Below are positions 17,211-63,960 of a DNA stretch of 64,000 nucleotides, piece after piece. The stretch is from positions 96,001 through 160,000 of the forward strand of contig CAWBOC010000003.1 of the NCBI GenBank assembly GCA_963790305.1, in the 5' to 3' direction. The notes beneath the pieces were generated by a model. The model did not search any database. It had not been told where the DNA came from and worked only from the letters and a program-made list of their open reading frames with translations. The stretch's first letter is position 1; each line of letters begins with the position of its first letter. A program made the translations under genes and the position numbers. Origin of the DNA: an uncultured Gemmatimonadaceae bacterium. Lineage in GTDB: Bacteria; Gemmatimonadota; Gemmatimonadetes; Gemmatimonadales; Gemmatimonadaceae.

Positions 17211-17215
17211 GCTCC

Positions 17216-18762: not shown

Positions 18763-19779
18763 CGCAACCTCGCGATGATCGCGCTGGTGAACTCGTCGGT
18801 GGTTGCCGTCCCCCCGAGATCGCCGGTCAGCGTCTTTCCCTCCCGGATCGTGGCGTAGAGCGCGTCGCGAATCCGCGTCGCGCGCGCGTGGTCTCCCACA
18901 TGATCGAGCATCATGCATGCCGCGAGCAAGAGTGCGCCGGGATTGGCGACGCCCTTGGTCGCGATGTCGGGCGCTGTCCCGTGCACTGCCTCGAAGATCG
19001 CCGCCTTCGCGCCAATGTTCGCGCCTGGCGCGAGTCCCAGGCCACCGACCAGCCCCGAGATCTGATCGGACAGGATGTCACCGAACAGGTTCGTCGTCAC
19101 GATGACATCGAACGCCTCGGGGCGCATTACGAGACTCATTGCCATCGCATCGACGATCTTCTCCTCGACCTCGATGCGTCCATCATACTGTTTCGCGATT
19201 TCACGCCCCACGTCGAGGAACAGCCCCTGTGAGAACTTGAGGATGTTGGCCTTGTGGACGATGGTCACCTTCCGGCGCCCATGCTTCACCGCGTACTCGA
19301 ACGCGTACCGGTGAATGCGCTCCGATCCTGCCCTCGTGATGATCGCCACCGATTCCGCGGCGGCATGAGGATCGTCTCCGATCTTGATGTAGTGCTCGAC
19401 GCCGACGTAGAGTCCCTCGGTGTTCTCCCGCACGAGCACGAGGTCGACGTTGTCGTAGCGCCGGCGTCCCGGCGTCACCGACTTCGCGGGGCGAACGTTG
19501 GCGTAGAGATCGAACTCCTTTCGCAGGGCGACGTTCACCGAGCGGTAGCCCGAGCCGACGGGCGTCTCGAGCGGACCCTTGAGCGCCAGGTGCGTCCGCG
19601 AGATCGACGCGAGCGTCTCGTCAGGCATCGGATCGTCGTGGCTCGGCGACGGCGGCCATGCCGGCGAGCTTTCGATCCCATGCGATGTCGGCGCCGGCCG
19701 CCTCGACGATGCGAACGGTCGCCTCGGTGATGCCGGGGCCGATGCCGTCGCCGGGAATGAGCGTTATCGGGATGGGCAT
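18759..19779 (-). CDS. Isocitrate/isopropylmalate dehydrogenase family protein (frameshifted near 19630)
   Basis: N-terminus MPIPITLIPGDGIGP lies in another frame; RENTEG, VHKANI, NLFGDILSD and FEAVHGTAPDIA motifs. Confidence 0.9.
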
Positions 19780-24570: not shown

Positions 24571-24749
24571 AGAGCGTGCTGGCAGTGATCGCGCACGCAC
24601 TGCGCGTCGTCGCCGGTGCACCGCGATACGACGCGTACCGCGCACACATCGCGCGACACCATCCGCAGCGCGAGCCAATGTCGCGCGCCGAGTTCGAGCG
24701 CGCGCGGCTCGACGATCGATATTCGAAACCGGGGGCGAAATGCTGTTAA
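24567..24749 (+). CDS. YbdD/YjiX (DUF466) CstA-associated small protein
   Basis: G.P.YDAY.AH..RHHP..EPMSR.EF.R.R...RY.....CC signature. Confidence 0.9.
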   Translation: MKSVLAVIAHALRVVAGAPRYDAYRAHIARHHPQREPMSRAEFERARLDDRYSKPGAKCC

Positions 24750-25363
24750 GGATTGCGGAATGCGGATTGCGGGTTTCATGCGTGCTGGTCCTGTGGGCAC
24801 TCACCCTTCCCGCGCAAGAAGCGACCACGACTCCCACGGCCCCGAGCCTGACCGTCGAGCAGCAGATCACGGTCGCGGTGCTTCCGCTTCCCAACGACTT
24901 GCGCGCTGGCGCCACGGTGCTCGGCTACGGAACGGACGGAAAGCTCGCCCCGCTGCGCAAGGGAACGGGGGACATGACGTGCCTGGCGCCCAACAAGACC
25001 GCGTCGCGCTTTCACGTCGCCTGCTACCACAACTCGCTCGAGCCGTTCATGGCGCGTGGGCGTGCACTTCGCACGAGCGGTGTGAATGGAGACGCGGTCG
25101 ACAGCGCGCGTTTCCGTGAGATCAAGGCGGGGCAGCTCGCGGTTCCCAAGGGCCCGGCGTCGCTTTATTCGCTCACCGGTGATTGGAGCACCCTCGACGC
25201 GACGGCGCTGACCGCCAATGGCGCGCGCAGGCTGTTCGTCGTCTACATCCCGTTCGCGACATCGCAAACGACGGGACTCTCCGACAAGCCCGCGCGCGGA
25301 ACACCCTGGATCATGGGCGCCGGGACACCCAAGGCGCACATCATGTTCGTGCCGGAGATGTAG
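24740..25363 (+). CDS. Secreted hypothetical protein
   Basis: Signal-like N-terminus; RAGATVLGY, FHVACYH and WIMGAGTPKAHIM motifs. Confidence 0.7.
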   Translation: MLLRIAECGLRVSCVLVLWALTLPAQEATTTPTAPSLTVEQQITVAVLPLPNDLRAGATVLGYGTDGKLAPLRKGTGDMTCLAPNKTASRFHVACYHNSLEPFMARGRALRTSGVNGDAVDSARFREIKAGQLAVPKGPASLYSLTGDWSTLDATALTANGARRLFVVYIPFATSQTTGLSDKPARGTPWIMGAGTPKAHIMFVPEM

Positions 25364-29521: not shown

Positions 29522-30711
29522 ATGCTCCGGCAGCTCTGGCACCACCCCGCCCTTCGGCAGGCGCGGCTACAGCTCGCGTCACGCGACCAGGACATCGTGC
29601 TCGAGCAGATCGCGGTGTCGGAAATCGCCGCGCCCACGGGCGAAGAAAATGAGCGGGCGCAGTGGGTGGCCCAGCGGTTCGAAGCGCTGAAGCTGAGCGA
29701 CGTACGCATCGACCAAGCGGGCAATGTGATCGGACGACGGCGCGGGAGGACGGATGGCCCCGCGGTGCTCGTATGCGCACATCTCGACACTGTCTTCCCG
29801 CGTCAGACGCGCGTCAGCGTGGCGCGACTCGGGAACCGCCTCGCTGGACCCGGCATCGGCGACAATGGGCGCGGCGTGGCGGCAATGCTGGCCCTCGCTA
29901 CCGCGCTCGACGGCGCGACATTGGTCGACCGAGCGTCCCGTCGATTTCATTGGCACGACCGGTGAGGAAGGCGCCGGCGATCTCCGCGGCGCGAAGCACC
30001 TGTTCGCGCACGAGGGACGCGATGCGGCGGCGGCGGTCATCCTCGACGGCGCGGGGGACGAGCGCATCGTTCATCGTGCTCTCGCGTCTCGCCGCTACCG
30101 ACTGACCTTCGAGGGACCGGGCGGGCACAGCTGGACGGCGTTCGGAGTGCCTAACGCCGTGCACGCCGCGGCGGTCGCGACGGCGCGGCTCGCGCGACTC
30201 GTCCTTCCGACGACGCCGCGCACGACGCTGTCGGTCGGACGCATCGGAGGCGGCATCTCCGTGAACTCCATCCCCGACCGCGCGTGGCTCGAGGTGGACG
30301 CGCGGTCAGCGTCAGCCGGCGATGATCTCGCGCCTCGATCGCGACGTGCGTGAAGCCGCCGCAGCGGGCGCCATGGAGGAAAACGCGCGGCGGGCCGTGG
30401 GCGCGATACCGTTGACGTACACCGTGGAGGTAATCGGCGAGCGACCGGGTGGCGAAACGCCGGTCGATCACCCGCTCGTGCTCGCCGCCATGGAGGCGAC
30501 GCGCCTCATCGGTCGGAACCCCGAGCTCGCGATCGCCTCGACCGACGCCAACATCCCGATCAGCCTCGGCATCCCCGCCGTAGCGATCGGTGCGGGCGGA
30601 CGTGGCGGGGATGCGCACACGCCCGGGGAGTGGTTCGAGAACACCGAGGGCACTCTTGGGTTGAGTCGGGCGCTGGGTGTGGTGGTGAATGCGGCAGGGC
30701 TGGTCGTGTAG
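29522..30711 (+). CDS. M20/M25/M40 family metallo-hydrolase (frameshifted)
   Basis: AHLDTVFP, PGIGDN, GEEG.GDL.G, GPGGHSW, STDAN and AHTPGEW motifs. Confidence 0.9.
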
Positions 30712-30718
30712 GGGCGCA

Positions 30719-30827
30719 AGAGCATAACCACAGAGGCACAGAGGACACAGAGGAAAACCCGCACTGCAAAGCGCTTTGCAGTGCGGGTCTTCCTCTGTGT
30801 CCTCTGTGCCTCTGTGGTTACGCTCTT
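30719..30827. repeat. Palindromic element (ATAACCACAGAGGCACAGAG family), second copy
   Basis: aagagcataaccacagaggcacagaggacacagaggaa pairs with ttcctctgtgtcctctgtgcctctgtggttacgctctt; inner hairpin cccgcactgcaaagcgctttgcagtgcggg. Confidence 0.9.
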
Positions 30828-31814
30828 TGGGCCCCGCGCACCTCGGAGTGATCCCCGACGGTGACCTCACCTTGCACACCCTCGACGTGCACCTCGTCGC
30901 CGACCAGCGAATTCCGCAGCACGGAACGGATGATCTTCGACTTCTGTCCAACGAGTGTGTCGCTTGAGCTCCGAGTCCTCGACGACGGAGCCCGCGCCTA
31001 ACGTGACATTGGGCCCGATCTTCGACCGTCGGAGCGTGACACCCTCCTCGATGTAGACGGGATCGACGATCGTACACCCGTCGGTCGCATCCGGACGCTG
31101 CGCCCTTCCCTTCTCCAGCATCGCGCGGTTCGTCTCGAGCAGCGTGTCGATCTTGCCGGCGTCGTACCAGCCCTCGACGTCGATCACCCGGATCTTCGCG
31201 CCCTTGTCGATCATGTACTGGAACGCATCGGTGAGATAGTACTCGCCCTTGTTCTTGGGCTGCTTGAGCACCCACTCGATGCCTTCGTAGAGCAGCTTCC
31301 AGTTCTTGATGTAGTACAGCCCGATGTTGGCGCGCTTCGAGATCGGCGTCGTCGGCTTCTCGACGATCTTCGTCATGTTGCCTTGCGTGTCGGTGACGAC
31401 GACGCCGAAGCGCTGGTAGTCCTCGACCTCCTTCACCCAGATGATGCCGTCGGCGTCGGTCGTCTTGATGACCGAGAGGTCGGCGTCGAAGATCGTGTCG
31501 ACGAAGATGATCGAGCACCGGCTGGTCGACGTGGCCGCGCGCGAGCGCGACGGCGCCGGCGGTGCCATCCTGCACCTTCTGCTCGATGAATACGGCGGGG
31601 AAGTCGAACTCCGCGCGCGACGTACTCCTCGACCTTCTCCTTGAGATGGCCGGTGATGTAGATGATCTGCTCGACGTTGCCGAGCTTCTCGAGATCGTCG
31701 AGGATGTACGCCATCACCGGCTTGCCGGCGACCTTGAGCATCGGCTTCGGCGTGATGTGCGTGTGCGGGCCGAAGGCGCGTGCCCTTCCCCGCCAGCGGA
31801 ATGATCACTTTCAT
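30818..31814 (-). CDS. Sugar-phosphate nucleotidyltransferase (frameshifted)
   Basis: MKVIIPLAGKGTRLRP, FGVVV, IVEKP, GEYYLTDA and WYDAG motifs, C-terminal left-handed beta-helix. Confidence 0.88.
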
Positions 31815-32183
31815 GGCGCGCTCGTCCCCTCGCGTCCGTAGCGGTCCTGGAGTCGCACGACGTCGTCGAGCTCGGGCGTCGACGCCTCGAGGATGTCGCA
31901 GTCGGTGATCGCTTCCATGTAGTGCACGGTGCCGGGTGTGATGCGGAACGCGTCGCCCTCGCGCAAGCGAACATCCTCGAGCTCGTCGCCGGAGCTTGAC
32001 CCAGTAGTTCATCTCGCCCTTGAGCAGGTAGACGGTTTCGTCCTTCTGGTTGTGATACTGCACCGAGAGCGCATGCCCGGCCTTGATGTGGAGCACCTTG
32101 CCGACGTAGCGGTCGGTGTGCGCCCAGATGATCTCGTAACCCCAAGGCTTCAAGACGCGCTTCACCGGGGATGTGCCGCTCAA
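31811..32183 (-). CDS. Cupin domain protein (mannose-6-phosphate isomerase-like), frameshifted
   Basis: KPWGYE, LSVQYH..KDET and STPELDDVVR motifs; GAGGAG RBS before TTG. Confidence 0.85.
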
Positions 32184-32206
32184 ATCTGAACTCCTCTTGG
32201 CGGGCG

Positions 32207-32333
32207 AGATCAACGTCCGCCGACGTCAGGATCAGACGTCAGGGTATTGCGCGATCGAAGTTTCTGACCACTGACCCCTGACGTCTGATCCCTGACGTCT
32301 GCGGACGTTGATCTTCTGCTTCTGACGTCTGCA
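32207..32333. repeat. Palindrome of GACGTCAG-type repeats
   Basis: gatcaacgtccgc..gacgtcaggatcagacgtcaggg pairs with ccctgacgtctgatccctgacgtctgcggacgttgatc. Confidence 0.8.
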
Positions 32334-47614: not shown

Positions 47615-50215
47615 ATGAACTGGACGCGGCGCCTGGGGCGCCGACTCGACGCGTTGACGCGGGGCGACGACATCGACCGGGACGTCGACGAGGAGATGCG
47701 CCTCCACGTGGAGATGGAAGCCGCGGAGATCGCGCGGCTCGAGGGCGTGTCGCCGGACGAGGCGCGCCGGCGCGCCCTCGTCGCCTTCGGGGGCCTGACG
47801 CGGTACCAGGAAGAACACCGCAATGCCCGCGGAGTCGGGTTTGTCGAGCACACGGTCAGAGAGCTGCGGCAGGCCGTGCGCGGCCTCGCGCGCAGCCCCG
47901 CATTCACGCTCGCGGCGGTTGGCGTGCTGGCGCTGGGTATCGGGTCGACGACGGCGGTGTTCAGCGCCGTGAATGCCGTGCTCCGCAATCCCAATCACGA
48001 CGACCTCACCATCATCTTCTACCGCGGATTTCCCTCACTGTCCACGGTCGACTACCGCGCAATCGAGGAACAGCAGCGAAGCTTCTCCGCCGTCGGCGCG
48101 ATGCGACGCGGTGAGGCCGCCTTCCGTGCTCGCGGCGATCCGGAGCGCGTCCAGGTCGGCCGAGTGACGGCCGGGTTTTTCCGCGCGGTTGGCGTGCGCC
48201 CCGCCGCGGGTCGCCTGATCGAGGCGCGTGATGAGCCCGTGGGTGCCGACCGCGTCGCCGTGGTGAGCCACGCTCTCGCCGAGCGCGCGCTTGGCAACGC
48301 GGCGGCCGCGATCGGGCAGCAGGTCAGCCTCGACGGGTTCGCCCACACGGTCATTGGAGTGCTGCCGCCGAGTGACGAGCTCCTCCTACGGGCGGACATC
48401 TTCCCCGCCCTTCAGCTCGCGACGCCGGCGCGTCGCGGGCCATTCGGCATGTTGGTCGTCGCCCGCCTAACGCCTGGCACGACCTTCGAGTCCTCGACGC
48501 GCGACGTCAGCGCGATCAGCGACCGCGTCTTCCCACTGTGGTCGCCCGCGGGGGACCGGATGGCGCGCTACGAGGCCGTCCCCATCCGCACCGCCGCGCT
48601 CGCCACGCAGTCGCGCATGCTTCGCATCTTTGGCGCGGCAGTCGCGCTGGTGCTGCTCATCGGCGTCGCGAACGTCGCGAGCCTCATGCTGGTGCGAGCC
48701 ATCGGGCGCTCGCGCGAGGTGTCGCTGCGAGCAGTGCTCGGCGCCAGCCCCCTCCAGCTCGTGCGAATGTTCGTGACGGAGAGCGCCCTGCTCTGCCTGG
48801 CTGGTGCCGTCGTCGGCATCGCCGTGGGGTACTTCGCCCTTCGCGCGCTGGTCGAGGTCGGGCCGGCAATGCCGGGCCTCGCAGCGTCGAGCCTCGACGC
48901 CCGCGCCATGCTCTTCGCCGCGGCGGTCGCCGTCCTGGCGGGCATCGTGGTCGGTACCTACCCCGCGATCATGCTGCTGAGAAAGGGACATATCGGGCTG
49001 TCCGTCGGAGACCGCGCGATCGGAGGCGGGCGCGGCACGCGTATGCTTCGCAGCGGATTCGTCGTCGCCCAGTTCGCCCTGGCCCTGCCGCTTCTCGCCA
49101 TTTCGGGACTGCTGCTCTTGAGCTTCGTCCGGATGCAGCGGGTCGATCCCGGATTTGATCCCGGCAATCTCCTCACGGTCCGCGTCTCCCTTCCCACCGG
49201 GCAGTACGGCGACAGTACGGCCATCGCGGGGTACTGGGCGCGCGCATTGCCACGCGTCCGCGTGCTGGGGGGCGTCCGCGCGGTGGGGCTCGGCTCATCG
49301 ACGCCACCCGACGATTTCGGATCCAGCAACGACAACTTCAATCTCATCGACCGGCCAGCGGCGCCGGGCACGGCCGAGCCTAACGGCCCCTGGCCATTCG
49401 CCGACGCCGGGTACTTCGCGACCCTCGGCGTGCGGCTGCTCGAGGGCCGCATGTTCGCGCCGGGCGATACCGGCGTGGCGCCGGTGGCGCTGGTCAGCCG
49501 GTCGTGGGTTCGCAAGTACTACCCGCGCGAATCCGCGCTCGGGAAGACAATGGTGCGAGGCGGATGCACCGAGTGTCCGCTGACCACGGTCGTGGGCGTG
49601 GTCGATGACGTGCGCTACTCCGGACCCGCCGGACCGCTGGACGCAATGTACTCGCCCGTCTCGGAGAACGCACCGCGCACGCTCTTTCTGTACGTGAGGA
49701 CGGCAACGGCGCCTGACGAGCTCATCGGGCCGGTGCGGGAGGCATTGCGGTCGGTCGACCCCTCCGTGCCGCTGGATGATGCGATGTCGATGGACGACCG
49801 CCTCTACGCGTACGTGGCCCAGCCACGGCAGTGGGCGACCCTGCTCGGCACGTTCGCGGCGGCAGCGTTAGGTCTCGCCGCGGTGGGGGTATTCGGAATG
49901 CTCTCGTACATGGTGAGCACGCGGCGGCGCGAGATCGGCGTGCGAATGGCGATCGGCGCCGACCCTCGCCGGATCGTGCGCCTGGTCGTGAGCAGCGGGC
50001 TCGCGCACGCCGTCATCGGCTCGGCACTGGGGCTGGCGGCGGCGCTCATCGGCACCCGTGCCCTAACGAGCGTCCTGTACGATGTCAGCCCGGGTGATCC
50101 GTTCACAATGGGGCTGGCGACGCTCGCCCTGCTGGTCGTTGCCCTCTTTGCCTGCTGGCTGCCGGCGCGGCGCGCGGCCGCTATCGACCCGCTCGAGGCG
50201 ATTCGGCACGAATAG
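47615..50215 (+). CDS. ADOP-type duplicated ABC permease (MacB/FtsX domains)
   Basis: EEMRLHVEM prefix, LALGIG.TTAVFS, ANVASLML, RRREIGVRMAIGA and PARRAAAIDP motifs. Confidence 0.92.
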   Translation: MNWTRRLGRRLDALTRGDDIDRDVDEEMRLHVEMEAAEIARLEGVSPDEARRRALVAFGGLTRYQEEHRNARGVGFVEHTVRELRQAVRGLARSPAFTLAAVGVLALGIGSTTAVFSAVNAVLRNPNHDDLTIIFYRGFPSLSTVDYRAIEEQQRSFSAVGAMRRGEAAFRARGDPERVQVGRVTAGFFRAVGVRPAAGRLIEARDEPVGADRVAVVSHALAERALGNAAAAIGQQVSLDGFAHTVIGVLPPSDELLLRADIFPALQLATPARRGPFGMLVVARLTPGTTFESSTRDVSAISDRVFPLWSPAGDRMARYEAVPIRTAALATQSRMLRIFGAAVALVLLIGVANVASLMLVRAIGRSREVSLRAVLGASPLQLVRMFVTESALLCLAGAVVGIAVGYFALRALVEVGPAMPGLAASSLDARAMLFAAAVAVLAGIVVGTYPAIMLLRKGHIGLSVGDRAIGGGRGTRMLRSGFVVAQFALALPLLAISGLLLLSFVRMQRVDPGFDPGNLLTVRVSLPTGQYGDSTAIAGYWARALPRVRVLGGVRAVGLGSSTPPDDFGSSNDNFNLIDRPAAPGTAEPNGPWPFADAGYFATLGVRLLEGRMFAPGDTGVAPVALVSRSWVRKYYPRESALGKTMVRGGCTECPLTTVVGVVDDVRYSGPAGPLDAMYSPVSENAPRTLFLYVRTATAPDELIGPVREALRSVDPSVPLDDAMSMDDRLYAYVAQPRQWATLLGTFAAAALGLAAVGVFGMLSYMVSTRRREIGVRMAIGADPRRIVRLVVSSGLAHAVIGSALGLAAALIGTRALTSVLYDVSPGDPFTMGLATLALLVVALFACWLPARRAAAIDPLEAIRHE

Positions 50216-50313
50216 GCCGCTCCACGGCTCGGCGTGGCGCCCGCGGGTGCAAGGGGTCAGCTTTACGTTCGGCTACTCCGTCAGCCCACGCTCACCGGCA
50301 GGAGAGATCCCGC

Positions 50314-51774
50314 ATGCGGGAGCACTTCCCCGCTCACATTATCGGCGTCATGTGCGTCGCCACCGCGCTCGCATTCCCCGAGCGCGCGGGCGCGCAGACG
50401 CGCGACCTCGTCGACTACGTGGGGACGTACGAGTACCACGGAAGGACCACGCTCGAGGTTGTGGCGGCGCCAACCGCGACGGGCTCGCGGCTCGTCGCGG
50501 TGATCAAGGAAGCGAAGTATCCGCTCCAATTCCTGGGCGACGACCGGTTTCTCAATGGGGTGGGCGACACGATTCCCTTCGAGCGCGACGCGGAGGGATG
50601 GGTGCTCGCCTTTCGCGAGCGCGGGATCCGCTTCAGCCGGCTCGAGGACACGGTCACCAGATTCACGGCGGCGTCAGTCGTTCCGCGCCTGCCCGGGCGC
50701 GATGGGCGCGTCCCGCCGTATGCATACCGTCGGCCGGCCGACATGAGCGATGGGCTCGCTGTTGGCGACATTGCCGACGCAGGACTCACTCGTGCGCTGG
50801 CCGAGTCGCTGGGCGCGCGCATTCTCGACGGGAGGTACCCCGACGTCGACGCAGTGCTCGTGTATCGACGTGGGCGCCTGGTGCTCGAGGAATACTTCTA
50901 CGGCTACGACCACACGCGCCCACACCAGATGCGGTCGGCCACGAAGAGCGTCGTTTCCGCGCTCGTCGGGATCACGGTGGACCAGAAGAAGCTCGCGGGC
51001 GCGCGCGAGCGCGTGCTGCCGAGGCTGCCGTACGGCCCCGTGGCGGCCTACGCGCATCCCGATCCGCGGAAGGGAACGCTCACGTTAGGCGATCTCCTCA
51101 CGATGCGCTCGGGGCTCGCGTGCGACGACTGGGACGGAGGCTCGCCGGGCAACGAGAGCCGCGTGATCGAGCACGCAGACTGGGTGAAGGCCGTGATGGA
51201 CCTGCCCATGGCGGCCGAGCCGGGCAGCGTCGCGCGGTACTGCTCGGGTGGGGTCTTCGTGGCTGGGAGGATGGTCGAACGCGCAGTTAGTCAGCCGCTC
51301 CCGGTCTTCGCGCAACGATACCTCTTCGGCCCGCTCGGCATCCGCTCCACGGACGTGCGCTGGCCGTTCGTGCTCGACTCGTCGAACGTGGGGACATTCG
51401 CTCAACTGTCCATGCGGCCGCGCGACATGCTGAAGCTCGGCGTGCTCTTCCGCGATGGAGGGCGGTGGAAGGGCAAGCAAATCGTCTCACGCGACTGGGT
51501 GCAGCGATCCACCGCGGCGGCGACGCGAATGGGGAGCCGTGGGTACGGGTATTTCTGGTGGCGTCAGCCGTTCGATGTCGCGACATCCACGGGCACCCGG
51601 CGCATCGACGCGCTCAACGCGAGCGGGAACGGGGGGCAGAAGATCTACATCCTGCCTGAGCTGGACGCGGTGATCGTATTCACCGGCAGCGCGTACAACA
51701 ACGAGCACACGCCGCCCAACACGATCATGGAAGAATTGCTGTTGCCGGCACTCGTCAGGGGCCGTAACGAGTAG
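50314..51774 (+). CDS. Serine hydrolase (beta-lactamase family)
   Basis: SATKS (SxxK), LLTMRSG, YCS and GNGGQ motifs. Confidence 0.9.
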   Translation: MREHFPAHIIGVMCVATALAFPERAGAQTRDLVDYVGTYEYHGRTTLEVVAAPTATGSRLVAVIKEAKYPLQFLGDDRFLNGVGDTIPFERDAEGWVLAFRERGIRFSRLEDTVTRFTAASVVPRLPGRDGRVPPYAYRRPADMSDGLAVGDIADAGLTRALAESLGARILDGRYPDVDAVLVYRRGRLVLEEYFYGYDHTRPHQMRSATKSVVSALVGITVDQKKLAGARERVLPRLPYGPVAAYAHPDPRKGTLTLGDLLTMRSGLACDDWDGGSPGNESRVIEHADWVKAVMDLPMAAEPGSVARYCSGGVFVAGRMVERAVSQPLPVFAQRYLFGPLGIRSTDVRWPFVLDSSNVGTFAQLSMRPRDMLKLGVLFRDGGRWKGKQIVSRDWVQRSTAAATRMGSRGYGYFWWRQPFDVATSTGTRRIDALNASGNGGQKIYILPELDAVIVFTGSAYNNEHTPPNTIMEELLLPALVRGRNE

Positions 51775-54710: not shown

Positions 54711-54851
54711 GTCTAGCCTCCACGGCTGGTTGCCCCTACTCTAGGAGGCGCGCCTGCGACGCCGCAAGCGCCCTCCGACACCTGCGCTGACGCTTCGCTG
54801 ACGCGACCGATGCTTCATGCGCGGCATGACGCCCCACCGGAGCATGGCGCG

Positions 54852-57800
54852 ATGATACGCGTGCGAACGTTGGGTCACAGCGTGATCCAGATCGACTCGA
54901 CGCCGGTCGGTCCTGACGCCGAGATCGTCTTCGCCGCACTCCTGCTGCTGACCGTCGAGCCGGGCAAGCGCCTCGGACGCGGCGAGCTGTTAGGCATCCT
55001 GTGGCCGGAGGCGACGGGATCCCGCGCTGCCCATTGTCTCCGCCAGACGATCTACCGGTTGCGCACGCTCGGCGTGCCGCTGGAGGTGAGTCGCACCCAT
55101 CTCAGCGTCTCGTCGGAGGTAGTGGATTGCGATGTCGATGCGATCCTTCGACATTCGACGGGTGGAGGATGTCGAACGCATTGCTGACGACATCGATGGA
55201 CCGTTTCTCCCTGGCTACTGGCCGAGTTTCTCGGAGCGACTTCAAGAATGGGTGGAGCGTCATCGCGACCTCGTCACGGCGAGCGCGCGACGCGTGTTGG
55301 TCAGCGCGATCGCGACCCGCAAGGCTCGCGCGGAATGGAGTGAGGTCGAGCGCCTGGCGCATCGCTGCCTCGCCATCGATCCATTGAACGAGGACGCCAC
55401 CCTGGCGCTGGCGGAGGCGGCGGCGCTTCACGGGGGGAAGGTCGAAGCGATTGGCATCCTCGATCGATATCTGCACGAGATGGGGCCGACGGCGCGTGAG
55501 CTGCGCCTCCCTGCGATGGCGCTCCGCCGGCGGATCGCCGAGCCCGAGCTGGAGTTCCCGCTCGCTCCGCCGCTCCATGTGCCGTTCGTGGGTCGCAGCG
55601 CCGAGATGGGCATACTGACCGGCGCGCTTCGCAGCGCGCGGGGGGGCGCCGGGAGCGTCCACTTCATTCACGGGGAGCCTGGGATCGGCAAGACCAGACT
55701 CCTCACCGAGTTCTCGCGTGCGGCGTCGCTCGAGGGTGCGCGCATTGCTGCCGCGCTATGTCAGTCCAGCGACGCGCGACGCCCGCTGTCCGCGTTCGTC
55801 GATCTGGTGCCGAGGCTCATGACGATGCCGGGCGCGCTAGGGTGTAGTCCGCAATCGCACAGGTATCTCCGGCGCTTCATCGAACACCATTCCGGTGGCT
55901 CGCCTCCCACGCCGGATGTGCCGAAGCTGCCTTTCTCTATACGAACGTGCGCGGTCGCTCTTCGATCTGTTCGATGCAATCGCTTCCGAAACTGTTCTGG
56001 TCGTGTCGATTGAAGATGTTCAGTGGCTCGACGCGGCATCGTGGGAGATAATCGGTGAAACCGGCTCTTGGCTCCAGACGCGGCGCACTCTCCTCCTGCT
56101 AACATCGCGTGAACGAGAACCACAGGCATCGGAATCACGGGCCTTCTGCAGTCGCAACGTCTCTTCCCTATGGCTCGCACCGTTCGCTCGGCCAGAAAGT
56201 GAGCGTCTCTTCGCAGCAACCCTAGGCGAAGAGACGCAGAAAGTCTCCGCTTCCTTCCGCGATTGGTGCGTCACTATGAGCGGCGGGAATCCTTACTACC
56301 TCTCGGAGCTCGCCCTGCACAGCCCCAAGCGCCGAGGTGAGTTTGTGGTCCCTCCAGTTTGTCGGCTTTAGTGGCAGAAAGGGTAGCGCGTCTTCGACCG
56401 GTATCATGTCGAGTTCTACAGGCGTGTGCGATACTCGGTAGAGATGCCACAGTTGATCGAGTCGAAAGCATGCTCGCGCAACGACGCATTGACCTACTTG
56501 ACGCACTTGATGAGCTTGACGAACACGCACTTATCGCCTGGAACGGGTCCCAGATCGTTAGTCGCCATGACCTCCTTTCCCAAGCTGCGATCGCTCGACT
56601 CTCTCCGCTATCCCGAAAATTGCTGCACCAGCATGCCGCATTGGTCCTCGAAGGCGAAGTATCGTCGGGTAGCACACCCGCCGTGGTTTGGTCTTCTGCT
56701 GAGCACTGGGCGGAGGCCGGTCTCCCTGAGCGAGGGATTGCGCTGGTGTGCAAGTGCGCGCGTCAGGCTATTGAGCTTGGCCAGCCCCAAGAAGCTGTTG
56801 AGCTACTCCGCCGCACAAAGGACCTACCGTTAGCTGATCGGGAACGCCTCAGCGTTCTTACAGAGTTGATTTACGCATACAGGGCGGCTGACCGGTGGCA
56901 GGACGCCACGAGGGAGTTTGCTGACCTTCGCTCCCTGCGTCGTCGTGTTTGTGCAGGAGAATCCGGTGTTCACGACGACATCGAATTGATTGGGATCGAA
57001 TCTCAGTGGCTCGGAGGGTTCAGCCCTGAAACGATCATCGCTCAGTTACTCCAATGTTGTCGGTCAAGTGAGACGACATTCGAGCCACCGAATAGCCGCC
57101 GCCAAACTTTGTCTTATTATCTCAGACAACGTGCGTGATTGCGCAACTGCGATAGAGGCATTCGAACTTGTAAGGCACGATCTGCAAATTGAAGCTATCC
57201 CGACAGTGGAAGGCATCGAGGCCCGTCTGATCTTTGAGACCTCGTTTGGGGATCGTGCGGCAGCGAAGAGCACCGTCGACAGGCTTCTGCAGGCCGATTG
57301 GCAGTCGTCTCGAAGACAGGCCTTTAGCCTAATCCTCGCGGCACACGCATGCGAGCGATTAGGAATGCCGGGGCGCGTGACACAGGTCGCGACCGAAGCA
57401 TATCGACTTGGAGTTGAGTCCTCCTGCGCGACCGCCGCAGCCGCTGCCGCACGAAAACTCGCGTGGGCTTATTTGGACGAGGGAGACCAAGAGCAGGCTG
57501 AGCATTGGTATAAACTTGCCCTGGGTTGGGTACAAAAGGGGCAACTCTCCAGCTTTACCGCAGATTTGCTTGGGCTTCACGCAGAACTACTGATTGGCCG
57601 TGAAGACTACGCCGGCGCCAGCGAAGCGTTAGAGAAGTCGCAAGAGGCTTGGCACCGAACCGTTCACGCCAGGTGGAAACTGAGCGTTCTTTCGGCGCGT
57701 TCCGCGATTTGGCTCGCCACCGGCGCGCGAAGCAGCTGTGAAGTCGCGGCGAGTGAGTACGGAGAGTTACTGAGCCGACTGCATCACGAGGAGGGGAACG

Positions 57801-58033
57801 ACCTATTTGCGGCGCGATACTTCCTGCTACTCGCCGGCATTGGTCGACGCTATGAAGCAGAGGTGGAAATGCGGAAATACCTCGCGTCACGGACTAAATC
57901 GCCCGTTCAGTACAGCCCGACTCTGAAGGCGGTCATACGACAGTTTTCGCCGAGCGGCACGGAGGATCCTGCGACTAGCGGCTACCTACTTTCCGAAGTC
58001 GACCTGACGTCGCCATCACCACCCGTGAGCTGA
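54852..58033 (+). CDS. Transcriptional regulator: wHTH/BTAD + STAND-type NTPase + TPR (about four frameshifts)
   Basis: MIRVRTLG, LLGILWPE..LRQTIYRLR, AIDPLNEDA (BTAD), PFVGR, GEPGIGKTRL (Walker A), IEDVQWLD (Walker B), GGNPYYL, RHDLL, helical repeats. Confidence 0.85.
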
Positions 58034-59327
58034 TGGGCGTCGGTTCCCTCTGTTCTGGCACAAAGAGGAGTGACCAGAGTGGGCTCGCCAATAACCGATC
58101 GCAAATCATGGGATCAAACTGGCGGGCCCGTTGCCGAATGAACTCGGACCGCACCTCCGGCTCGCCTCTGGCTTGACGGTATGGTCGATCCGTTGTCATC
58201 GCGTCTATAGTATCCGCGAACATGATGATTCGAGACTCAAGCGGTATATCCTCTCCCGCCAGACCGTCCGGGTAGCCCGATACCGTCCCAATTCTCGTGA
58301 TGGTGGCGCAACGGAGCGACCAAGTCGCGCAGATTGCTCACGGTCGCCACGAACTCCGCACTCCGAATGGGATGGGTCTGCATGATGGCCCATTCGTCAG
58401 GCGTAAGCTTATCCGGCTTGCTCAGAATCGGCGCGTACATTTCGTGAATCTTGCCGACATCGTGCAGTAGAGCAGCCGTTCCAACGCGCTCGATCCGTCG
58501 TGTCGTAAGCCCGATGGCGCGCGCAATAATCTTCGAGTAGTGCGCGACCCGCATCGAGTGACCGGAGGTGTACGGATCCCGCGCCTCGATTGCCTTAACC
58601 ATCAATTGCAGCAGTTCTTGGTTCACCTGTTCAAGTTTTGCTGTCGTACTGTAAAGCTGTCGGACGCCTAATAGCGGGATCGCTAGGCAGACTGCTCCGA
58701 GCGGGCCAGTGCGAGCAAAAGCCCAGGCAAGCAGCAGAACCACAGGCGCTGCTAGGACGTCGTAGACAAGGGAGTGAAGAGTATTCTTGCGCCAGACACG
58801 CAGAATGCGACTTGCCTTCACTTACTGCGATCGCGCCGCTTACCGACAACGTATTCACAGCAAAGAAGACGACCGTGAGCAGGAGGAACGGAATCCCGAA
58901 TCCCGACGCATCGTACGCAAGCTCTTCTAAGGGCGCTCGCAGAATCGATTCACCACCGAATGCCAAATAGCACAGTGTACCAAGGGCGGTCGCCAAGGAC
59001 ATTTGCGCAACGTTGAAGACGCGCCTTGAGCAAGGGGCGCTGGCTGAGTACCTCGGCGATGACGTACGCGAGGGCCACCGATACGGCGCTCGTCCAGTGG
59101 GGAGCGACGAGAACCAAGCGCCAAGAAAGGAATAAATGCGATCGTCCCTCCCGCGCCCTGCGGAAGGGAGAAGAGCATCATTTGCGCCAGAATTCCCAGC
59201 CCGGATAGCCAAAGCGCGGCGCCGACGTGCGCAAACGACATTCCGGCCGATACGCGTAGAGCGCAACGACCGCGAGCGACTGCCAGCAGACAATTGATAC
59301 CGACGTACTGCTGTATTCTGATCGCAT
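57975..59327 (-). CDS. Membrane-sensor HD-GYP cyclic-dinucleotide phosphodiesterase (frameshifted)
   Basis: Multi-TM N-terminus (FNVAQ, FFAVNT); EARDPYTSGHS, LHDVGK, HP and HHHENWDG; GYPDGL after a one-base correction; DAMTTDRPYR. Confidence 0.9.
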
Positions 59328-59354
59328 AGAAGCTGGGACCCCCGTCCCCGACTG

Positions 59355-59429
59355 CTAGATCCACATCTGCGAGCCACCGGAAAACACAAACTTCATCAAA
59401 CCACTCACGAGCCCGGCCAAGAACTCCAT
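59355..59429 (-). CDS. 24-aa peptide MEFLAGLVSGLMKFVFSGGSQMWI (putative signal peptide/ligand)
   Basis: Manual translation ATG(59429)..TAG(59355); GGAGGTGA RBS 6 nt upstream; stop 27 nt before the HD-GYP start. Confidence 0.75.
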   Translation of the reverse strand: MEFLAGLVSGLMKFVFSGGSQMWI

Positions 59430-59780
59430 GGTGCGTCACCTCCCTCAGGATAAGTCGCACCGGCATCCGCCGAATGCGCTCCAAAAGGTTGGCTCCGCTC
59501 GTACTACCTGGCCTGCCCGCTCAGCTTCGCTCAGCCGAGGAACGGGGGTTTTTGTGGGTTCCTAGTTGGTTGGTCCTTGGGTTCGACTACCTCCGAGAAC
59601 ACCAGCGCTCCCGGGTTCCGCCTCCCCGGGCGACATCGCCCGGCCATCTCACCCGCGCTGCCCTCCCACCACGGACGGCGTGCTACGCAACCTGAAGAAA
59701 GAACACTGCGAAGAAAAAACTGCGAGGATTCACACGCCACGATCGGCGCGCGGAATGGCCTGCCGAGCTACCTCACACGC

Positions 59781-60506
59781 CTAACGGGCGTGCCCGATCC
59801 ACCGATTCGTCGCATCCAGCACCGCCAGCACGCTCGCCGTCTCGGGACTGTCCTTGATCTCGCACGTGCCGCTCAAGAAGGCGCTCTCGCGCCCCCATCG
59901 CGCCGTGAGACCCACGATCACGAACTCCCGGTCGAACGCATCGATGAGCTTGCAGCCATCCAGCGCCAGCTGGCGCGACTCGCCTTCCGCCTGGCCGATG
60001 GCGAGAACCGCCGCACGCGCCGCCAGTTCCGCGCGCGAACGCTCGGTCTCCGCTCCCTCGGCCTCTCCTATGTACGACGCATCACCTTTTCTGAGCGTCA
60101 CCCGGCACGTCACGCCCTTCGTGCGCGAGCGCCGCACCTCCACATCCTCGAAATAGACGCGGCGTTTGTTCGCTGCCTCCTCGAGAATCGCGGCCTCCGC
60201 CGCACGCACTTCGGGCGCCGGCTTCGGCGTCTCGACGGTCGTCGCCACCGAAATCTTTCGATGATCCACGCGCATGCTCAGGTGCGCGATCAGCGCGCTC
60301 TCGATGTTGCGCACCGTCTGCTTCGGCGGCACCTCCGCCGTCGTCAGCACATGGATCTCATCCACCGCACCGTTGTCGCTCGCGACGATGCGCACCGACA
60401 CCACGCCCGGCAGCGTCGCGAGCAACTCCTCCGCGCGCTTGATGGGGAGCACGCTGCCAGCGATTGGGCTGGCAATCGTCGGATGCGGGGCAGGAGTCGC
60501 GGCCAT
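59781..60506 (-). CDS. Conserved hypothetical protein
   Basis: 241-aa ORF: LPGVVSVRIV..EIHVLT..PKQTVRNIESAL..DHRKISVA, C-terminal LAVLDATNR. Confidence 0.85.
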   Translation of the reverse strand: MAATPAPHPTIASPIAGSVLPIKRAEELLATLPGVVSVRIVASDNGAVDEIHVLTTAEVPPKQTVRNIESALIAHLSMRVDHRKISVATTVETPKPAPEVRAAEAAILEEAANKRRVYFEDVEVRRSRTKGVTCRVTLRKGDASYIGEAEGAETERSRAELAARAAVLAIGQAEGESRQLALDGCKLIDAFDREFVIVGLTARWGRESAFLSGTCEIKDSPETASVLAVLDATNRWIGHAR

Positions 60507-60533
60507 TGCGGCTTCGAAGTGAGACTGCGCGGA

Positions 60534-62203
60534 CTACAGGAGGGACGACAAGGCGGGAGCGGCGCGAAGCCGCCGAGTCAGCAGAACCGGTTCACGCTCG
60601 GGACGACGGGCGTTTTCGGCACGGGCCAATATGAGATACAAGGCTCGCGAAATCAAGGAACTACGTTCCTCCGGCACATTATACTCTCTCAACTTTCTGT
60701 AGAGCGTGCGCTCGCCGATCGCCAGCATCTCTGCGGCCTTTCTTCGGTTTCCACGCGCACGCCGCCAGCGCCTGCCTGATCGCGGCACTGCTCGATCTCT
60801 TCCATCGTCATCCCCGGCGCGATCTGGATGACGTCCGAGGGCTGCTCGCGGTGCCTCGATGGCGTGCTGAGCTGCCGAGCTGCGAACTGCGGAGCTTTGT
60901 ACGTCACCGATCCACTGCACCGTCCGGTTGGCGCACCTCGTCCAACCTTCTCCGCAGCTCCTCCACCTGGAGCTTCAGCTCCACCATGCTGCGGACGATG
61001 AACTCCAGCTCGCGCCCGGCTACGCCCTCGGTCGCGCGCAGCACCGGACCCACGTGCACCGGCAACAGACGCGGGGCTCCGCCGTCGCGGATCTCGCGCG
61101 GGATGTCCTCGGCCCCGATCTCGCGGCCGGGCGACAGCACCACCATGCTCTCCACCAGGTTGCGCAGCTCGCGCACGTTCCCCGGCCACGGAGTAGCTCG
61201 ACAGGATCTGCATCGCCTCGGCCGAGATGCCCTTGAACTCCCGGCCGTGCGCCTGGGAGAACTCGCGGACGAACTTCCGCACCAGGAGCGGGATGTCCTC
61301 CGGCCGCTGGCGCAGCGGCGGCAGGTAGATGTGGAGAACGTTGAGCCGGTAGTAGAGGTCGGGACGGAAGCTTCCCTCCTCCACGTGCTCGCGCAGCGGA
61401 CGGTTCGTCGCCGCCACCACCCGCACGTCCACGCGAATCGGTGAGACGCCGCCGAGGCGCATGATCTCGCGCTCCTCGAGCGCGCGGAGGAGCTTCACCT
61501 GCGTCGGTGGCGGCGCCTCGCCGATCTCGTCGAGAAAGAGCGTCCCCGTGTGCGCCAGCTCGAACCGCCCGAGCCGTCCGCTCGGCGGCTCCGGTAAACG
61601 CGCCCTTCTCGTGGCCGAACAGCTCGCTCTCGAGCAGCGTCTCGGGGAGCGCGCCGATGTTCACCGGGATGAACGGCTTCGCGCGGCGCGGGCTCAGCTG
61701 GTGGATGGCGCGCGCGACGAGCTCCTTGCCCGTCCCGCTCTCCCCCTCGATGAGCACGGTGCTCGACACCGGCGCCATCTGCTCGATCTTGACCAGCACT
61801 TCGCGGATCGCGTCGCTCTCCCCGATCAGCCCGGTGATCTCGGCGAGACGCGCGCCGCTCGAGGATGCGCTGGATGCCGTCGAACACCTCGTTCACGTCC
61901 ACCGGCTTCGTCCAGATCTCGACGTAGCCGAGCGCGCGGAGGCGATCGCGAAGCGTGGGATCGTCGAGGTCGGAGAGGCCGACGACGGCCGTCCCCTCCC
62001 ACAGCTGCCGCTTCACGAGCTGCACGTTCGGCTGGTCGACGAGACCGCCGGTGAGCACGATGACGTCGGGCTTCTGCTTCTCGACGGCGGTGCGCAGGTC
62101 GTCGTACGGCGACACGACCTCGGTCTCGACGCCGGCGCGCTCGAAGCAGATTCTTGAGGCGGACCGCCGGCTCGACGTCGGTGAGGGTGATCAGGACCTT
62201 CAT
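60534..62203 (-). CDS. Sigma54-dependent Fis-family activator with receiver-like N-terminus (frameshifted; 3' end uncertain)
   Basis: [43 protein letters not shown] and [21 protein letters not shown] motifs. Confidence 0.92.
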
Positions 62204-62253
62204 CGATTGCGCGCTGCCCGGAGGGCGCGCGGATTGCGGATTGCGCATCAGCC

Positions 62254-62752
62254 TCATCGCGCGGTCCCCGTTTCGTGATCGGTTGCGTTCGCCGCGCAGG
62301 ATCTGGATCGCGTGGTCGATGATCGGCTCCAGCGCGGCGAGGCCGTCGCGCACGCCGCCGGGTGAGCCAGGAAGGTTGACGATGAGCGTGCGCGCGCGTA
62401 CTCCGGAAATCCCGCGCGACAGCGCCGCCCTCGGGAACGACGACATGCACGCCACGCGCAGCCGCTCGGCGATTCCCGGCGCGTCGCGCTCGATCACCGC
62501 CCGCGTCGCCTCCGGGGTGACGTCGCGCGGGGAAAGGCCGGTGCCGCCCGTCGTGAGAATGACGTCGGCCACGTCGTCGTCGGCCCACTTCGTCAGCGAG
62601 CGCACGATCGCGACGGTGTCGTCAGCCACGAGATCGCGCGCCACCACCTCGCTTCCGCGCGCCTTTGCCCAGGCGACGATGGCGTCGCCCGAGGTGTCGG
62701 CCCGTTCGCCGCGAGAACCCGCATCGGAGGTCGTGAGGAGGGCGATTCTCAT
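62254..62752 (-). CDS. mogA: MogA/MoaB molybdopterin adenylyltransferase
   Basis: ILTTGGTGLSPRDVTPEAT, LSRG and IVNLPGSP motifs; frameshift near the 3' end. Confidence 0.9.
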
Positions 62753-62756
62753 AGGT

Positions 62757-62845
62757 GATCGAGGGTGCTCCAGGGCGCCGAGGGCGATCGAGGTGACGTC
62801 GTTGCCTCGATCACCGCGGCGTCCTCGACGACCTCGATCGCCTCT
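62757..62845. repeat. Degenerate 9-mer palindromic repeat
   Basis: gatcgagggtgctccagggcgccgagggcgatcgagg pairs with cctcgatcaccgcggcgtcctcgacgacctcgatc. Confidence 0.6.
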
Positions 62846-63960
62846 ATTTATGCGCCCCTTCCTCTTGTAGAACGGCGTCTTCACCACCTCCGCCGGGACG
62901 CGCTTGCCGCGGATCTCGATCTCGATCGCCGTGCCTTCCTTCGCGGCGGCGGGCGGGAGATAGCAGGTGCCGATGGCGATGCCTAACGTCGGGCTCACGG
63001 TCCCGCTGCGGACGAGGCCGTGCGGCTTGCCGTCGTGGAGCACCGGGTAGCCGTGGCGCGGGAAGGCCTTGTCGCGCATGACGAAGCCCGACGAGCTTGC
63101 GCTCGAGGCCCTTCTCCTTCTGCCTGACGAGCGCCTCGCGTCCGACGAAGTCCCCCTTCTGCAGCTTCACCAGCCAGGCGAGGCCCGCCCTCGAGCGGCG
63201 TCGTCGTCGAATCGATGTCGTTGCCGTAGAGCGCGAATCCCATCTCGAGGCGCAGCGTGTCGCGCGCGCCGAGGCCGGCGGGCGTGACGTCGGTGTTCTC
63301 GGTGAGCGCGTCCCACATGCTCGCGGCGTACTCCGGGCGGAAGTAGAGCTCGAAGCCGTCTTCGCCGGTGTAGCCGGTGCGCGAGATGACGGTGGGCATC
63401 CCGGCCACCTCGCCTTCATCGAAGTGGTAGTAGGCGATGTCGCCGAGCTTCGTCTCGGTGAGCCGCGCCAGAATCTGCTCGGCCTTGGGACCCTGAAGCG
63501 CGAGGAGCGCGACGTCGTCGCTGAAATCCTCGAGCGTTACCTCGAAGCGCGACGCGTAGCGCGAGATATGCTCGAAGTCCTTTTCGCGGTTCGACGCGTT
63601 GACGACCATCATGATGCGGTCGGCGAAGCGATAGACGAGGCAGTCGTCCTCGATCGTGCCGCCCTCGTTGAGAATCGTGGAGTACTGCACCTGGCCGACC
63701 GCGAGGGCGGCGACGTCGTTCGAGGTCACGTAGTTGGTGAACGCCACCGCGTCCTTGCCCCGGACCATGAACTCGCCCATGTGGCTCACGTCGAACAGCC
63801 CGCAGCTCTCGCGCACCGCCTTATGCTCGGCGGTAATCCCGGCCGGGTATTGCACGGGCATCTCGTAGCCGGCGAAGGGCACGAGCTTGGCGCCCAGCGC
63901 GGCGTGGATGTCGTGGAACGGGGTGTAGCGGAGGTTCTGGGAGGCAGCTGAGAGCGACAT
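62844..63960 (-). CDS. gcvT: Glycine cleavage system aminomethyltransferase (frameshifted)
   Basis: FAGYEMPVQY, FDVSHMGE, ALQGP, SRTGYTGEDGFE, GLGARDTLRLE and KTPFY motifs. Confidence 0.95.

Follow-up and report, generated by a model that had tools for sequence, protein, structure and literature searches.

A predicted structured leader RNA with a putative micro-ORF upstream of a MASE9-HD-GYP gene in Gemmatimonadaceae

We have analysed a stretch of 64,000 nt of DNA (the window) from an uncultured Gemmatimonadaceae bacterium (assembly GCA_963790305.1, contig CAWBOC010000003.1, positions 96,001 to 160,000 of the forward strand), in which a very short open reading frame (the micro-ORF) precedes the gene of a MASE9-HD-GYP phosphodiesterase on the minus strand. 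On balance, we think that a cis-acting leader of about 215 nt, made up of a new class of structured RNA and the translated micro-ORF, gates the expression of the MASE9-HD-GYP gene. The RNA and the micropeptide probably form a unit that switches the HD-GYP enzyme, and they may also be partners of the enzyme. Since the ORF lies inside a covarying RNA, with the outer helix located at the stop codon, control of HD-GYP expression in cis is what is indicated first. The main features, all on the minus strand, are as follows.

59355..59429, minus strand: micro-ORF of 24 codons, MEFLAGLVSGLMKFVFSGGSQMWI; the GGGAGGTG box ends 7 nt before its ATG
57975..59327, minus strand: MASE9-HD-GYP phosphodiesterase gene, with its ATG at 59327, 27 nt past the peptide stop
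351 nt, minus strand: spacer from the 241-aa ORF to the micro-ORF, of which 59430-59554 (about 125 nt) is the conserved part
59555..59780, minus strand: upstream spacer, the presumed promoter region, with conservation within the genus only

The order-wide comparison comprised 20 entries from three families: the window and 19 orthologous loci. In 19 of these entries, the HD-GYP gene is preceded by an ORF of 16-31 codons with its start 2-4 nt past an invariant GGGAGGTGACGC box, and the sole exception is another frame-broken assembly. Overall, the micro-ORF was found at about 50 genome loci and 49 metagenome loci, with lengths of 16-35 codons. The 54 distinct peptides derived from genomes have a median length of 23 residues (range, 16-35), and their tail has the consensus [A/G/S]-[G/D/E]-[G/T]-x-x-W-x. 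A tryptophan is present within the last three residues of 46 of the 54, and of 43 of the 48 distinct peptides derived from metagenomes. Thus, orthologous HD-GYP genes have upstream of them a conserved small ORF whose product ends in G-x(2-4)-W, which an earlier note on this DNA had put forward as the thing to look for. The N-terminal two-thirds of the peptides are hydrophobic or amphipathic; the best 15-residue Kyte-Doolittle window is at least 1.6 in 33 of 53 peptides, the mean number of charged residues is about 2, the mean net charge is -0.6, and proline is absent from 51 of 53. Members of a second family (f2) and metagenome variants have an A-x-A-like site before a conserved K-L-F-F-A-[D/E]-G-x-x-x-W tail. 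Six metagenome loci (L288, L303, L326, L337, L291, and L321) have micro-ORFs of 29-34 codons with a Lys-bearing N-terminus and an A-x-A-like site before the tail, and these look more like small precursors with a signal peptide than the 23-residue forms do.

An open frame says little by itself, because the other frames are often stop-free in GC-rich DNA; over the span of the ORF, the other two frames have no stop in 15 and 24 of 50 loci. This would also be seen if the ORF were not translated at all, the open frame and the box being by-products of a noncoding riboswitch or small RNA, and the box is indeed invariant well beyond the needs of a Shine-Dalgarno sequence and is predicted to be paired. 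However, the start codon is located 2-4 nt past the box in every true locus, the length of the ORF varies by whole codons only (16-35), and the amino-acid motif is kept while the nucleotides differ. Furthermore, in 35 non-independent pairs of equal length and at least 70% nucleotide identity, the differences at codon positions 1, 2, and 3 number 160, 112, and 276, and this excess at the third position is the pattern of a translated, constrained sequence. We give the noncoding explanation hardly any credence. The codon bias together with the strong Shine-Dalgarno box suggests that the micro-ORF is translated, and the bias together with the conserved G-x-x-x-W tail suggests that the peptide itself is also functional.

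The leader RNA (59338-59554, minus strand) consists of about 125 nt upstream of the micro-ORF, the micro-ORF itself, and the 17-20 nt that come after it, and it appears to be a previously undescribed class of structured RNA. Its predicted elements in the window are the following.

59531..59550, minus strand: outer helix P0, 5' strand AACCCCCGUUCCUCGGCUGA, the C-rich 5' end
59515..59543, minus strand: hairpin P1, with an GAGCGAAG loop and a 5' strand that overlaps that of P0
59491..59500, minus strand: invariant block GAGCGGAGCC, 5' strand of P2, one of about four (G/U)AGCG repeats
59452..59481, minus strand: hairpin P3, at the tip of P2
59433..59444, minus strand: invariant box GGGAGGUGACGC, which holds the micro-ORF Shine-Dalgarno and is the 3' strand of the predicted P2
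59338..59354, minus strand: outer helix P0, 3' strand CAGUCGGGGACGGGGGU, directly after the peptide stop and ending 10 nt before the HD-GYP ATG

The structure was evaluated with alignments of 10 leaders (A1) and 33 leaders (A3) from the window's own family (f1), A3 being aligned to a covariance model of the leader RNA, R1. Two of the 50 genome loci and 1-2 rows of the alignments A1-A4 come from the unpublished genomes G015 and G429, and no claim is made on these alone. For the 33 leaders, 83.7% of the cells are paired, compared with 75.6% in shuffles (0/500 reach the observed value), and the covariation score is 0.261, compared with 0.139 in shuffles (0/500) and at most 0.08 when the partners are slid. 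The fold of the window RNA has z = -2.65. Hairpin P3 shows compensatory double changes at 10 of its 10 pairs. The GGGAGGUGACGC box does not vary in any of the leaders of either alignment (10/10 and 33/33), and 9 of 10 single-sequence folds have it paired with the GAGCGGAGCC block. The leaders contain a mean of 3.96 (G/U)AGCG pentamers, compared with 0.53 in shuffles, at constant positions, which are -100, -90, and -68 relative to the end of the Shine-Dalgarno box and, in f2 and a third family (f3), the P3 loop; in f2 they are arranged as tandem 5-nt repeats. The pentamers could be sites for an oligomeric RNA-binding protein, or direct repeats in the DNA that the winged-helix regulator encoded nearby would recognise; the operators of SARPs are TCGAGCG-like repeats. 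On the evidence of the pentamers, a protein-binding RNA is no less likely than a metabolite aptamer.

The outer helix P0 is formed by the C-rich 5' end of the RNA and a G-rich stretch of 17-20 nt that in all listed loci begins 0-3 nt past the micro-ORF stop. The latter strand ends about 10-14 nt upstream of the HD-GYP start, spanning roughly -28 to -11, and this start has no Shine-Dalgarno box of its own. At 50 loci, the mean duplex energy of P0 is -34.2 kcal/mol for the strands of the same locus, -27.8 kcal/mol across loci, and -24.1 kcal/mol for shuffled strands; Wilcoxon tests give p = 1.5e-11 for own against cross-locus and p = 8.9e-15 for own against shuffled duplexes, for n = 50 loci that are related and not independent. 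Compensatory variants of P0 are found, with GCAGCGGCCCUG/CAGGGCCGCUGC in L041 and GAUCCCC/GGGGAUC in L212, and the strands of some lineages differ altogether in sequence yet remain complementary. The two strands are swapped in f2, as GGGGGCCCC/GGGnCCCCC, and in L035 both strands have been lost together. In the predicted structure, P0 covers the HD-GYP initiation region and abuts the micro-ORF stop, the arrangement of a leader ORF that gates its downstream gene.

We propose the following mechanism. A trans factor, either a small molecule or the co-conserved 241-aa protein encoded upstream, would act at the P1-P3 domain with its four (G/U)AGCG repeats and set how often the micro-ORF is translated. 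The strong Shine-Dalgarno of the micro-ORF is predicted to be locked against the GAGCGGAGCC block in helix P2, within the highly conserved P1-P3 domain. This domain is a natural site of action for a ligand or a protein, and the 241-aa protein is the obvious candidate to act on it. A ribosome at the micro-ORF stop would have to melt P0, and the melted P0 would free the initiation region of the HD-GYP gene, which lacks a Shine-Dalgarno; in lineages with a U-tract after P0, its melting would prevent termination. The peptide, a hydrophobic helix with a W tail, is probably functional, most likely on the same HD-GYP enzyme.

The position of P0 can also be read in another way. The 3' strand of P0, 0-3 nt past the stop, is inside the footprint of a terminating ribosome, the micro-ORF has a median of 23 codons, and its conservation lies mostly in the 7 residues that adjoin the stop codon; when set beside the lengths and properties of the TnaC and SpeFL leaders, these features would fit a ligand-sensing arrest peptide, with a ribosome stalled at the stop holding P0 open and the HD-GYP gene on. 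However, the tail is variable, with the W last in 15 peptides, penultimate in 34, and outside the last three residues in 8 of 54. There is no proline or other known arrest signature, and both the hydrophobic N-terminal part and the P1-P3 domain would be left unexplained. We consider ligand-dependent arrest unlikely.

Several observations weigh against gating by the leader as we have proposed it. None of the Rfam 15 covariance models, including those of the c-di-GMP-I and -II riboswitches, has a minus-strand match with E<=10 at 59200-59900, and there is no relevant match with E<=1 for L025, L036, L039, and L041. Helix P2 does not vary within the family (5 of 10 pairs are invariant in the 33 leaders), so the sequestration of the Shine-Dalgarno is a matter of folding prediction, and the register of P2 is not the same in different families. 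P1 is weak, with 64-84% of its cells paired and double changes at 3 of 11 pairs in the 33 leaders; it is a possible alternative pairing to P0, because their 5' strands overlap. L035 retains the micro-ORF and the HD-GYP gene without P0. A fourth helix, between the P1-P2 linker and micro-ORF codons 3-9, was seen in the window fold and was rejected, as the own duplexes (-27.75) are no better than the cross-locus ones (-27.9, p = 0.70). The expression data have limits as well. All 4 of the soil metatranscriptome runs used, each from a different study, have contigs that match 59382-59555, three of them with 0-2 mismatches across 119-156 nt, and in the best run the word depth is up to 67 on the leader, compared with 2-8 on its flanks. 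This cover is an expression hint for the leader, from contigs that do not show transcript ends, that may include DNA carry-over, and in which a conserved stretch attracts relatives. The zero cover of the HD-GYP body at 58900-59350 is uninformative about its expression, given the use of contigs and the cross-mapping of relatives. Finally, an ORF that serves as a mechanical opener needs no conserved peptide. Gating alone leaves the conservation of the peptide unexplained, and therefore a second role of the peptide is likely, putatively as a partner of MASE9, as an arrest peptide at the stop, or as a ligand of the neighbouring TPR regulator.

Signals for transcription were also sought around the leader. 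There is no -24/-12 promoter (TGGCAC-N5-TTGCW with up to 3 mismatches) before the leader or the 241-aa gene on the minus strand at 59430-60700, and over the whole window the sigma-54 consensus has 78 matches, compared with 94 expected. A scan of the 59555-59780 spacer for a sigma-70-like consensus found none, and a consensus scan of the stretch that separates the micro-ORF from the HD-GYP gene found no local intrinsic terminator. At several loci, L030, L037, L167, L199, and L206 among them, the 3' strand of P0, which is G-rich or, in f2, C-rich, has 5-7 U directly after it without a local hairpin. P0 may be a long-range terminator stem in these U-run lineages.

R1 matches 78 of 121 genomes of the same family, and 62 of 88 high-quality ones, nearly always with one copy per genome. 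The signature of RNA plus ORF occurs as a single copy in the window's own 4.3-Mb genome. Because of this single copy and the recurrence in 78 of 121 family genomes, the element is beyond chance. An apparent second copy of the RNA in some genomes was in each case a contig-end fragment or an ordinary locus, all of them followed by a micro-ORF and HD-GYP. An ORF of at least 432 aa begins within about 65 nt of the micro-ORF in 45 of 50 genome loci, and a G.GYP motif lies downstream in 28 of the 31 metagenome loci with enough room. The micro-ORF, the RNA, and the HD-GYP gene are always found together, and the linkage between the peptide and MASE9-HD-GYP genes is strict in about 100 loci. A second order of the class has a 265-aa homolog of the 241-aa protein, the RNA, the micro-ORF, and HD-GYP in the same order. 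In one locus, L032 (G020:C5:18000-24600), the leader and HD-GYP are inverted and convergent with the 241-aa gene, and R1 has a weak match at 1624-1757. The source names of the homologs point to soil-type samples.

The wider searches were less specific. The metagenome scan yielded 80 loci, 49 with a micro-ORF (the 48 distinct peptides mentioned above) and 31 without it; the latter, many with a match length of 76 nt, are putatively an unrelated conserved coding sequence, like a false positive that recurs in the phylum-wide pattern tally. The pattern AGCGGAGCN{44,72}GGTGACGC was found in at least 120 stretches of genome contigs, almost all of them chance matches in unrelated phyla. R1 was run on 48 of 80 pattern loci, those from cultured, clearly unrelated genera having been left out, and matched only L073, from Gemmatimonadaceae; from this, nothing is inferred about the range outside the phylum. 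The same loose pattern matches 241 of 401 genomes of the phylum, partly as noise, since the reversed-pattern control has about 0.2-0.3 matches per genome. Its low rates in families f6 (10/30), f7 (20/70), and f10-f12 (1/19) may be due to chance.

The locus is accessory. An ortholog of the 241-aa protein is present in only 2 of 8 other genomes of the window's genus, and R1 has no match in the same-genus genome G008. The G+C content is 0.56-0.60 at 56000-59500, covering the 3' half of the STAND-type regulator gene described below and the HD-GYP gene, compared with 0.65-0.71 on either side. Because of this drop and the absence from most same-genus genomes, the cassette may be a horizontally moving accessory unit.

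The enzyme was assigned from an intact ortholog of 449 aa in the same genus (G003), which is 89% identical to the window gene over the HD piece. The ortholog has a match to HD_5 (PF13487) at 2.2e-33, the motifs LHDVGK and HHHENWDGSGYP, and an intact HHExxDGxGYP. The HD piece of the window gene (58237-58821) has HD_5 and HD matches, with HD_5 at 1.1e-15, and its GYP motif is broken by a 1-base insertion. By family criteria, the product of the window gene is predicted to be an HD-GYP phosphodiesterase, with cyclic di-GMP (c-di-GMP) or cyclic GMP-AMP (cGAMP) as candidate substrates. The MASE9 domain (PF20972) was found at residues 64-199 of the G003 ortholog with a marginal score of 25.7 bits, compared with a cut-off of 24.3, and the MASE9 profile has no match in the window's own genome, in which the gene is frame-broken. 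Galperin and Chou argue that MASE9 has charged residues in its hydrophobic core and binds a ligand within the membrane, and they refer to only one MASE9 protein as studied so far (bioRxiv 10.1101/2021.11.05.467447). Outside the phylum, MASE9 is found in Thermotoga and Thermus.

A ligand site of this kind brings in a direct role for the peptide, as inferred in the earlier note, namely as the cognate ligand or small-subunit partner of the MASE9 domain, by which it would modulate HD-GYP itself, with the RNA serving for co-regulation only. The strict linkage of the peptide and MASE9-HD-GYP genes, the coding-type constraint on the peptide sequence, the hydrophobic N-terminal two-thirds of the peptides, and the argument for intramembrane ligand binding by MASE9 in that preprint (bioRxiv 10.1101/2021.11.05.467447) are all in agreement with this. 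However, many of the peptides have 1-5 charged residues in the helix, and MFDVWTDFIDDFLDWIAETILWT is strongly acidic and would be poorly suited to a place within the membrane; those with 16-20 residues lack the length to cross it, and the elaborate RNA is left unexplained. We regard direct binding to MASE9 as a realistic possibility, though not one that we expect to be borne out, and it is compatible with gating by the leader.

The genes around the leader and the HD-GYP gene are the following.

62116-62760, minus strand: MoCF_biosynth (MogA/MoaB-like) gene, upstream of the enhancer-binding protein gene
60534..62115, minus strand: sigma-54 enhancer-binding protein (bEBP), in about 5 frames here, with pieces of Sigma54_activat, AAA_lid_14, and HTH_8 (Pfam)
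59781..60506, minus strand: 241-aa ORF, intact, with no Pfam match
54810..58033, plus strand: convergent STAND-type regulator, with AAA_16 and TPR pieces (Pfam), in about 5 frames here

A single conserved cassette includes the bEBP, the 241-aa protein, and the AAA_16-TPR regulator. The synteny of the bEBP gene is kept in all 20 order-wide loci, and the intact G003 ortholog has Sigma54_activat (6e-70) and HTH_8. A MoCF_biosynth gene is located upstream of bEBP in most of the f1 and f3 loci examined. In f2, a gene for a 4Fe-4S/Fe-hydrogenase-like sensor fused to GGDEF lies between the bEBP and 241-aa genes (L036 745-2454, plus strand; also L037 and L038), so that a maker and a breaker of c-di-GMP are present in one cassette. 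Some f2 genera have an HTH_17-REC response regulator between the 241-aa gene and the leader (L036 3308-3907, plus strand; also L037 and L038). The conserved neighbours in the cassette include no transporter, protease, oligopeptide permease, export or processing gene, or histidine-kinase gene.

The 241-aa protein belongs to an unnamed family, known mainly from Gemmatimonadota. The synteny of its gene with HD-GYP extends over three families of the order and to a second order, as the earlier note had anticipated. Two of the outcomes that the note had named as refuting its reading, a lack of a conserved small ORF and a lack of this synteny, were thus not observed. In the protein, a variable linker separates an N-terminal alpha-beta-beta-alpha-beta domain from a C-terminal domain of 2x(beta-beta-beta-alpha). 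The C-terminal domain resembles an amino-acid-binding regulatory domain; a candidate counterpart is the regulatory domain of LeuA and citramalate synthase, which has a 2x(beta-beta-beta-alpha) fold and an amino-acid effector. A stand-alone paralog of the C-terminal domain, of 154 aa and ending in ...AVLNATNRVLG, is encoded at G000:C1:147662-148126 (minus strand), adjoining a 489-aa ORF. Stand-alone paralogs are present in most relatives, and therefore the C-terminal domain is a family of its own.

All 12 of the further f1 loci compared have the convergent regulator, and 5 of 6 loci from f2 and f3 have AAA_16 matches that are weaker. The claim that it is a BTAD-NTPase-TPR protein was borne out for the NTPase and TPR parts: the intact orthologs of 1043 and 1107 aa (L248:1351-4479 and L249:2449-5769) have AAA_16 and TPR_19 or TPR_12. 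BTAD or Trans_reg_C was not confirmed at E<=0.01, even in these two orthologs, and a search of PDB sequences gave no match. The N-terminus of the regulator is winged-helix-like and possibly SARP-like. The SARP/AfsR-like STAND regulators (BTAD-NB-ARC-TPR), which combine an N-terminal Trans_reg_C or BTAD module with a STAND NTPase and TPR repeats, are candidate relatives of the regulator here.

Could the peptide be a signal for the TPR domain of this regulator? It would act either in the cytoplasm or after export, processing, and re-import, with HD-GYP merely co-transcribed. The regulator is a conserved neighbour, as described above, and the peptides resemble the ComS and SHP precursors in their small size, their hydrophobicity, and their aromatic C-terminal tail, which in some of them ends in WW; f2 and metagenome variants also have the A-x-A-like site before the tail. 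However, the conserved cassette has no transporter, protease, or oligopeptide permease, the mean net charge is negative, most peptides do not have a positively charged N-terminus, and TPR repeats, being widespread, are no specific sign of peptide binding. A role as a TPR signal is, in our view, very unlikely. A broader picture, which we hold only tentatively and consider doubtful, combines a sensor RNA that times the production of a Trp-tailed peptide of about 23 aa, acting as a ligand of MASE9 or of the STAND TPR domain, with the 241-aa protein as a ligand-activated RNA-binding regulator that would read the (G/U)AGCG repeats in a TRAP- or HutP-like manner.

All the elements that the earlier note had listed for this locus were located where it had placed them, by ORF and Pfam checks, including the 24-aa ORF with a strong ribosome-binding site and the HD-GYP start 27 nt beyond its stop, both on the minus strand. 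Besides the BTAD assignment, two of its descriptions hold in part. The spacer described as structured over about 350 nt has the expected length of 351 nt, and it is conserved and structured only over the 125 nt at 59430-59554. The bEBP, HD-GYP, and STAND genes have the domains assigned to them, and they are not single ORFs in this assembly, each being broken into 2-5 frames. Compared with the intact G003 ortholog, the window HD-GYP gene has 7 single-base indels, none of them in homopolymers. Chains of overlapping same-strand ORFs in differing frames are found all over the window, for example at 16729-19628 (minus), 23599-25363 (plus), 30151-32213 (minus), 50082-51774 (plus), and 62844-63960 (minus), and gcvT is broken into three frames. 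Since such chains occur throughout the window and gcvT is also split, the frame breaks look like assembly-wide indel errors rather than decay of the HD-GYP locus; 7 indels in the 1.35-kb HD-GYP gene suggest a rate of single-base indels of about 0.5% across the assembly. Our statements on the proteins are therefore based on intact orthologs, and, given the indel rate, each of the gene calls in this genome needs comparison with orthologs.

A literature search found no description of this leader RNA or peptide, and we compared the system with known ones. The leader ORFs of erm and cat are of the same kind as mgtQ, which is one of the two closest parallels in mechanism. In Salmonella, the mgtQ upstream ORF (uORF) is reported to unmask the initiation region of mgtB (PMC8092293). 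Both systems have a very short ORF directly before a membrane-protein gene, with helices that overlap or abut the ORF, and in both the translation of the ORF is expected to set the accessibility of the downstream start. Here, however, the helix is long-range, over about 200 nt, and encloses a structured domain as well as the ORF; the Shine-Dalgarno of the ORF is predicted to be sequestered too, and the C-terminal motif of the peptide is conserved across the class. The present system has no known link to antibiotics or Mg2+, and it is known from sequence alone.

Riboswitches combined with uORFs are the other parallel. There are reports of B12 riboswitches of an atypical kind in M. tuberculosis, with translation of a uORF (PMC11260477), and of a SAM-II riboswitch in S. 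meliloti that exerts its translational control over a distance (PMC9373788). The shared scheme is that a structured sensor RNA controls the translation of a small upstream ORF and, through it, the expression of the main gene; the RNA here has no Rfam match. The closest thematic parallel is in C. difficile, for which published work reports a class-I c-di-GMP riboswitch before stand-alone genes of small membrane proteins that act on sporulation (PMC13724677). An RNA leader and a tiny hydrophobic protein in a c-di-GMP network are common to the two, whereas here the RNA is unclassified and the micro-ORF is arranged like an operon with the gene of a c-di-GMP-degrading enzyme.

The peptides may also be compared with small membrane proteins and with quorum-sensing precursors. 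MgrB, KdpF, and AcrZ, the partners of PhoQ, KdpABC, and AcrB, are proteins of 29-49 aa with a clear transmembrane helix and demonstrated binding. They share with the present system a hydrophobic micro-protein encoded beside, or co-regulated with, a polytopic membrane protein, whereas the predicted peptides here are 16-35 aa long, and in many cases their length is too small, or their charge too high, for a membrane-spanning segment. The agr, com, and SHP/ComS systems, the last with RRNPP regulators, have a short hydrophobic precursor encoded beside signalling genes. The short hydrophobic aromatic-tailed precursor and a nearby TPR regulator, which is the only receptor-like element here, are shared with peptide quorum sensing. 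In contrast, the cassette has no AgrB-, ComAB-, or PptAB-type genes and no histidine kinase, the peptides have no double-glycine or Lys-rich leader, and the host is a diderm, a member of Gemmatimonadota.

What is new here are the counts for P3, P2, and P0 on new loci, the repeated pentamers, a fold for the 241-aa protein, the conservation of the STAND neighbour, and the metatranscriptome contigs. The five-gene cassette (bEBP, the 241-aa protein, the RNA with its peptide, HD-GYP, and STAND-TPR) is conserved in at least two orders, which speaks for a single functional system. The leader, absent from Rfam, is a candidate for a new class of riboswitch or protein-binding RNA in a poorly studied soil phylum. 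If the peptide is a ligand of MASE9 or TPR, peptide signalling would be wired to the breakdown of a second messenger rather than to a histidine kinase, and a peptide acting as such would be the first ligand for any MASE9 domain. We know of no input for MASE-type sensors or for most HD-GYP enzymes. The strict, class-wide linkage of RNA, micropeptide, and enzyme suggests, for one of these proteins, a definite input path that can be put to the test.

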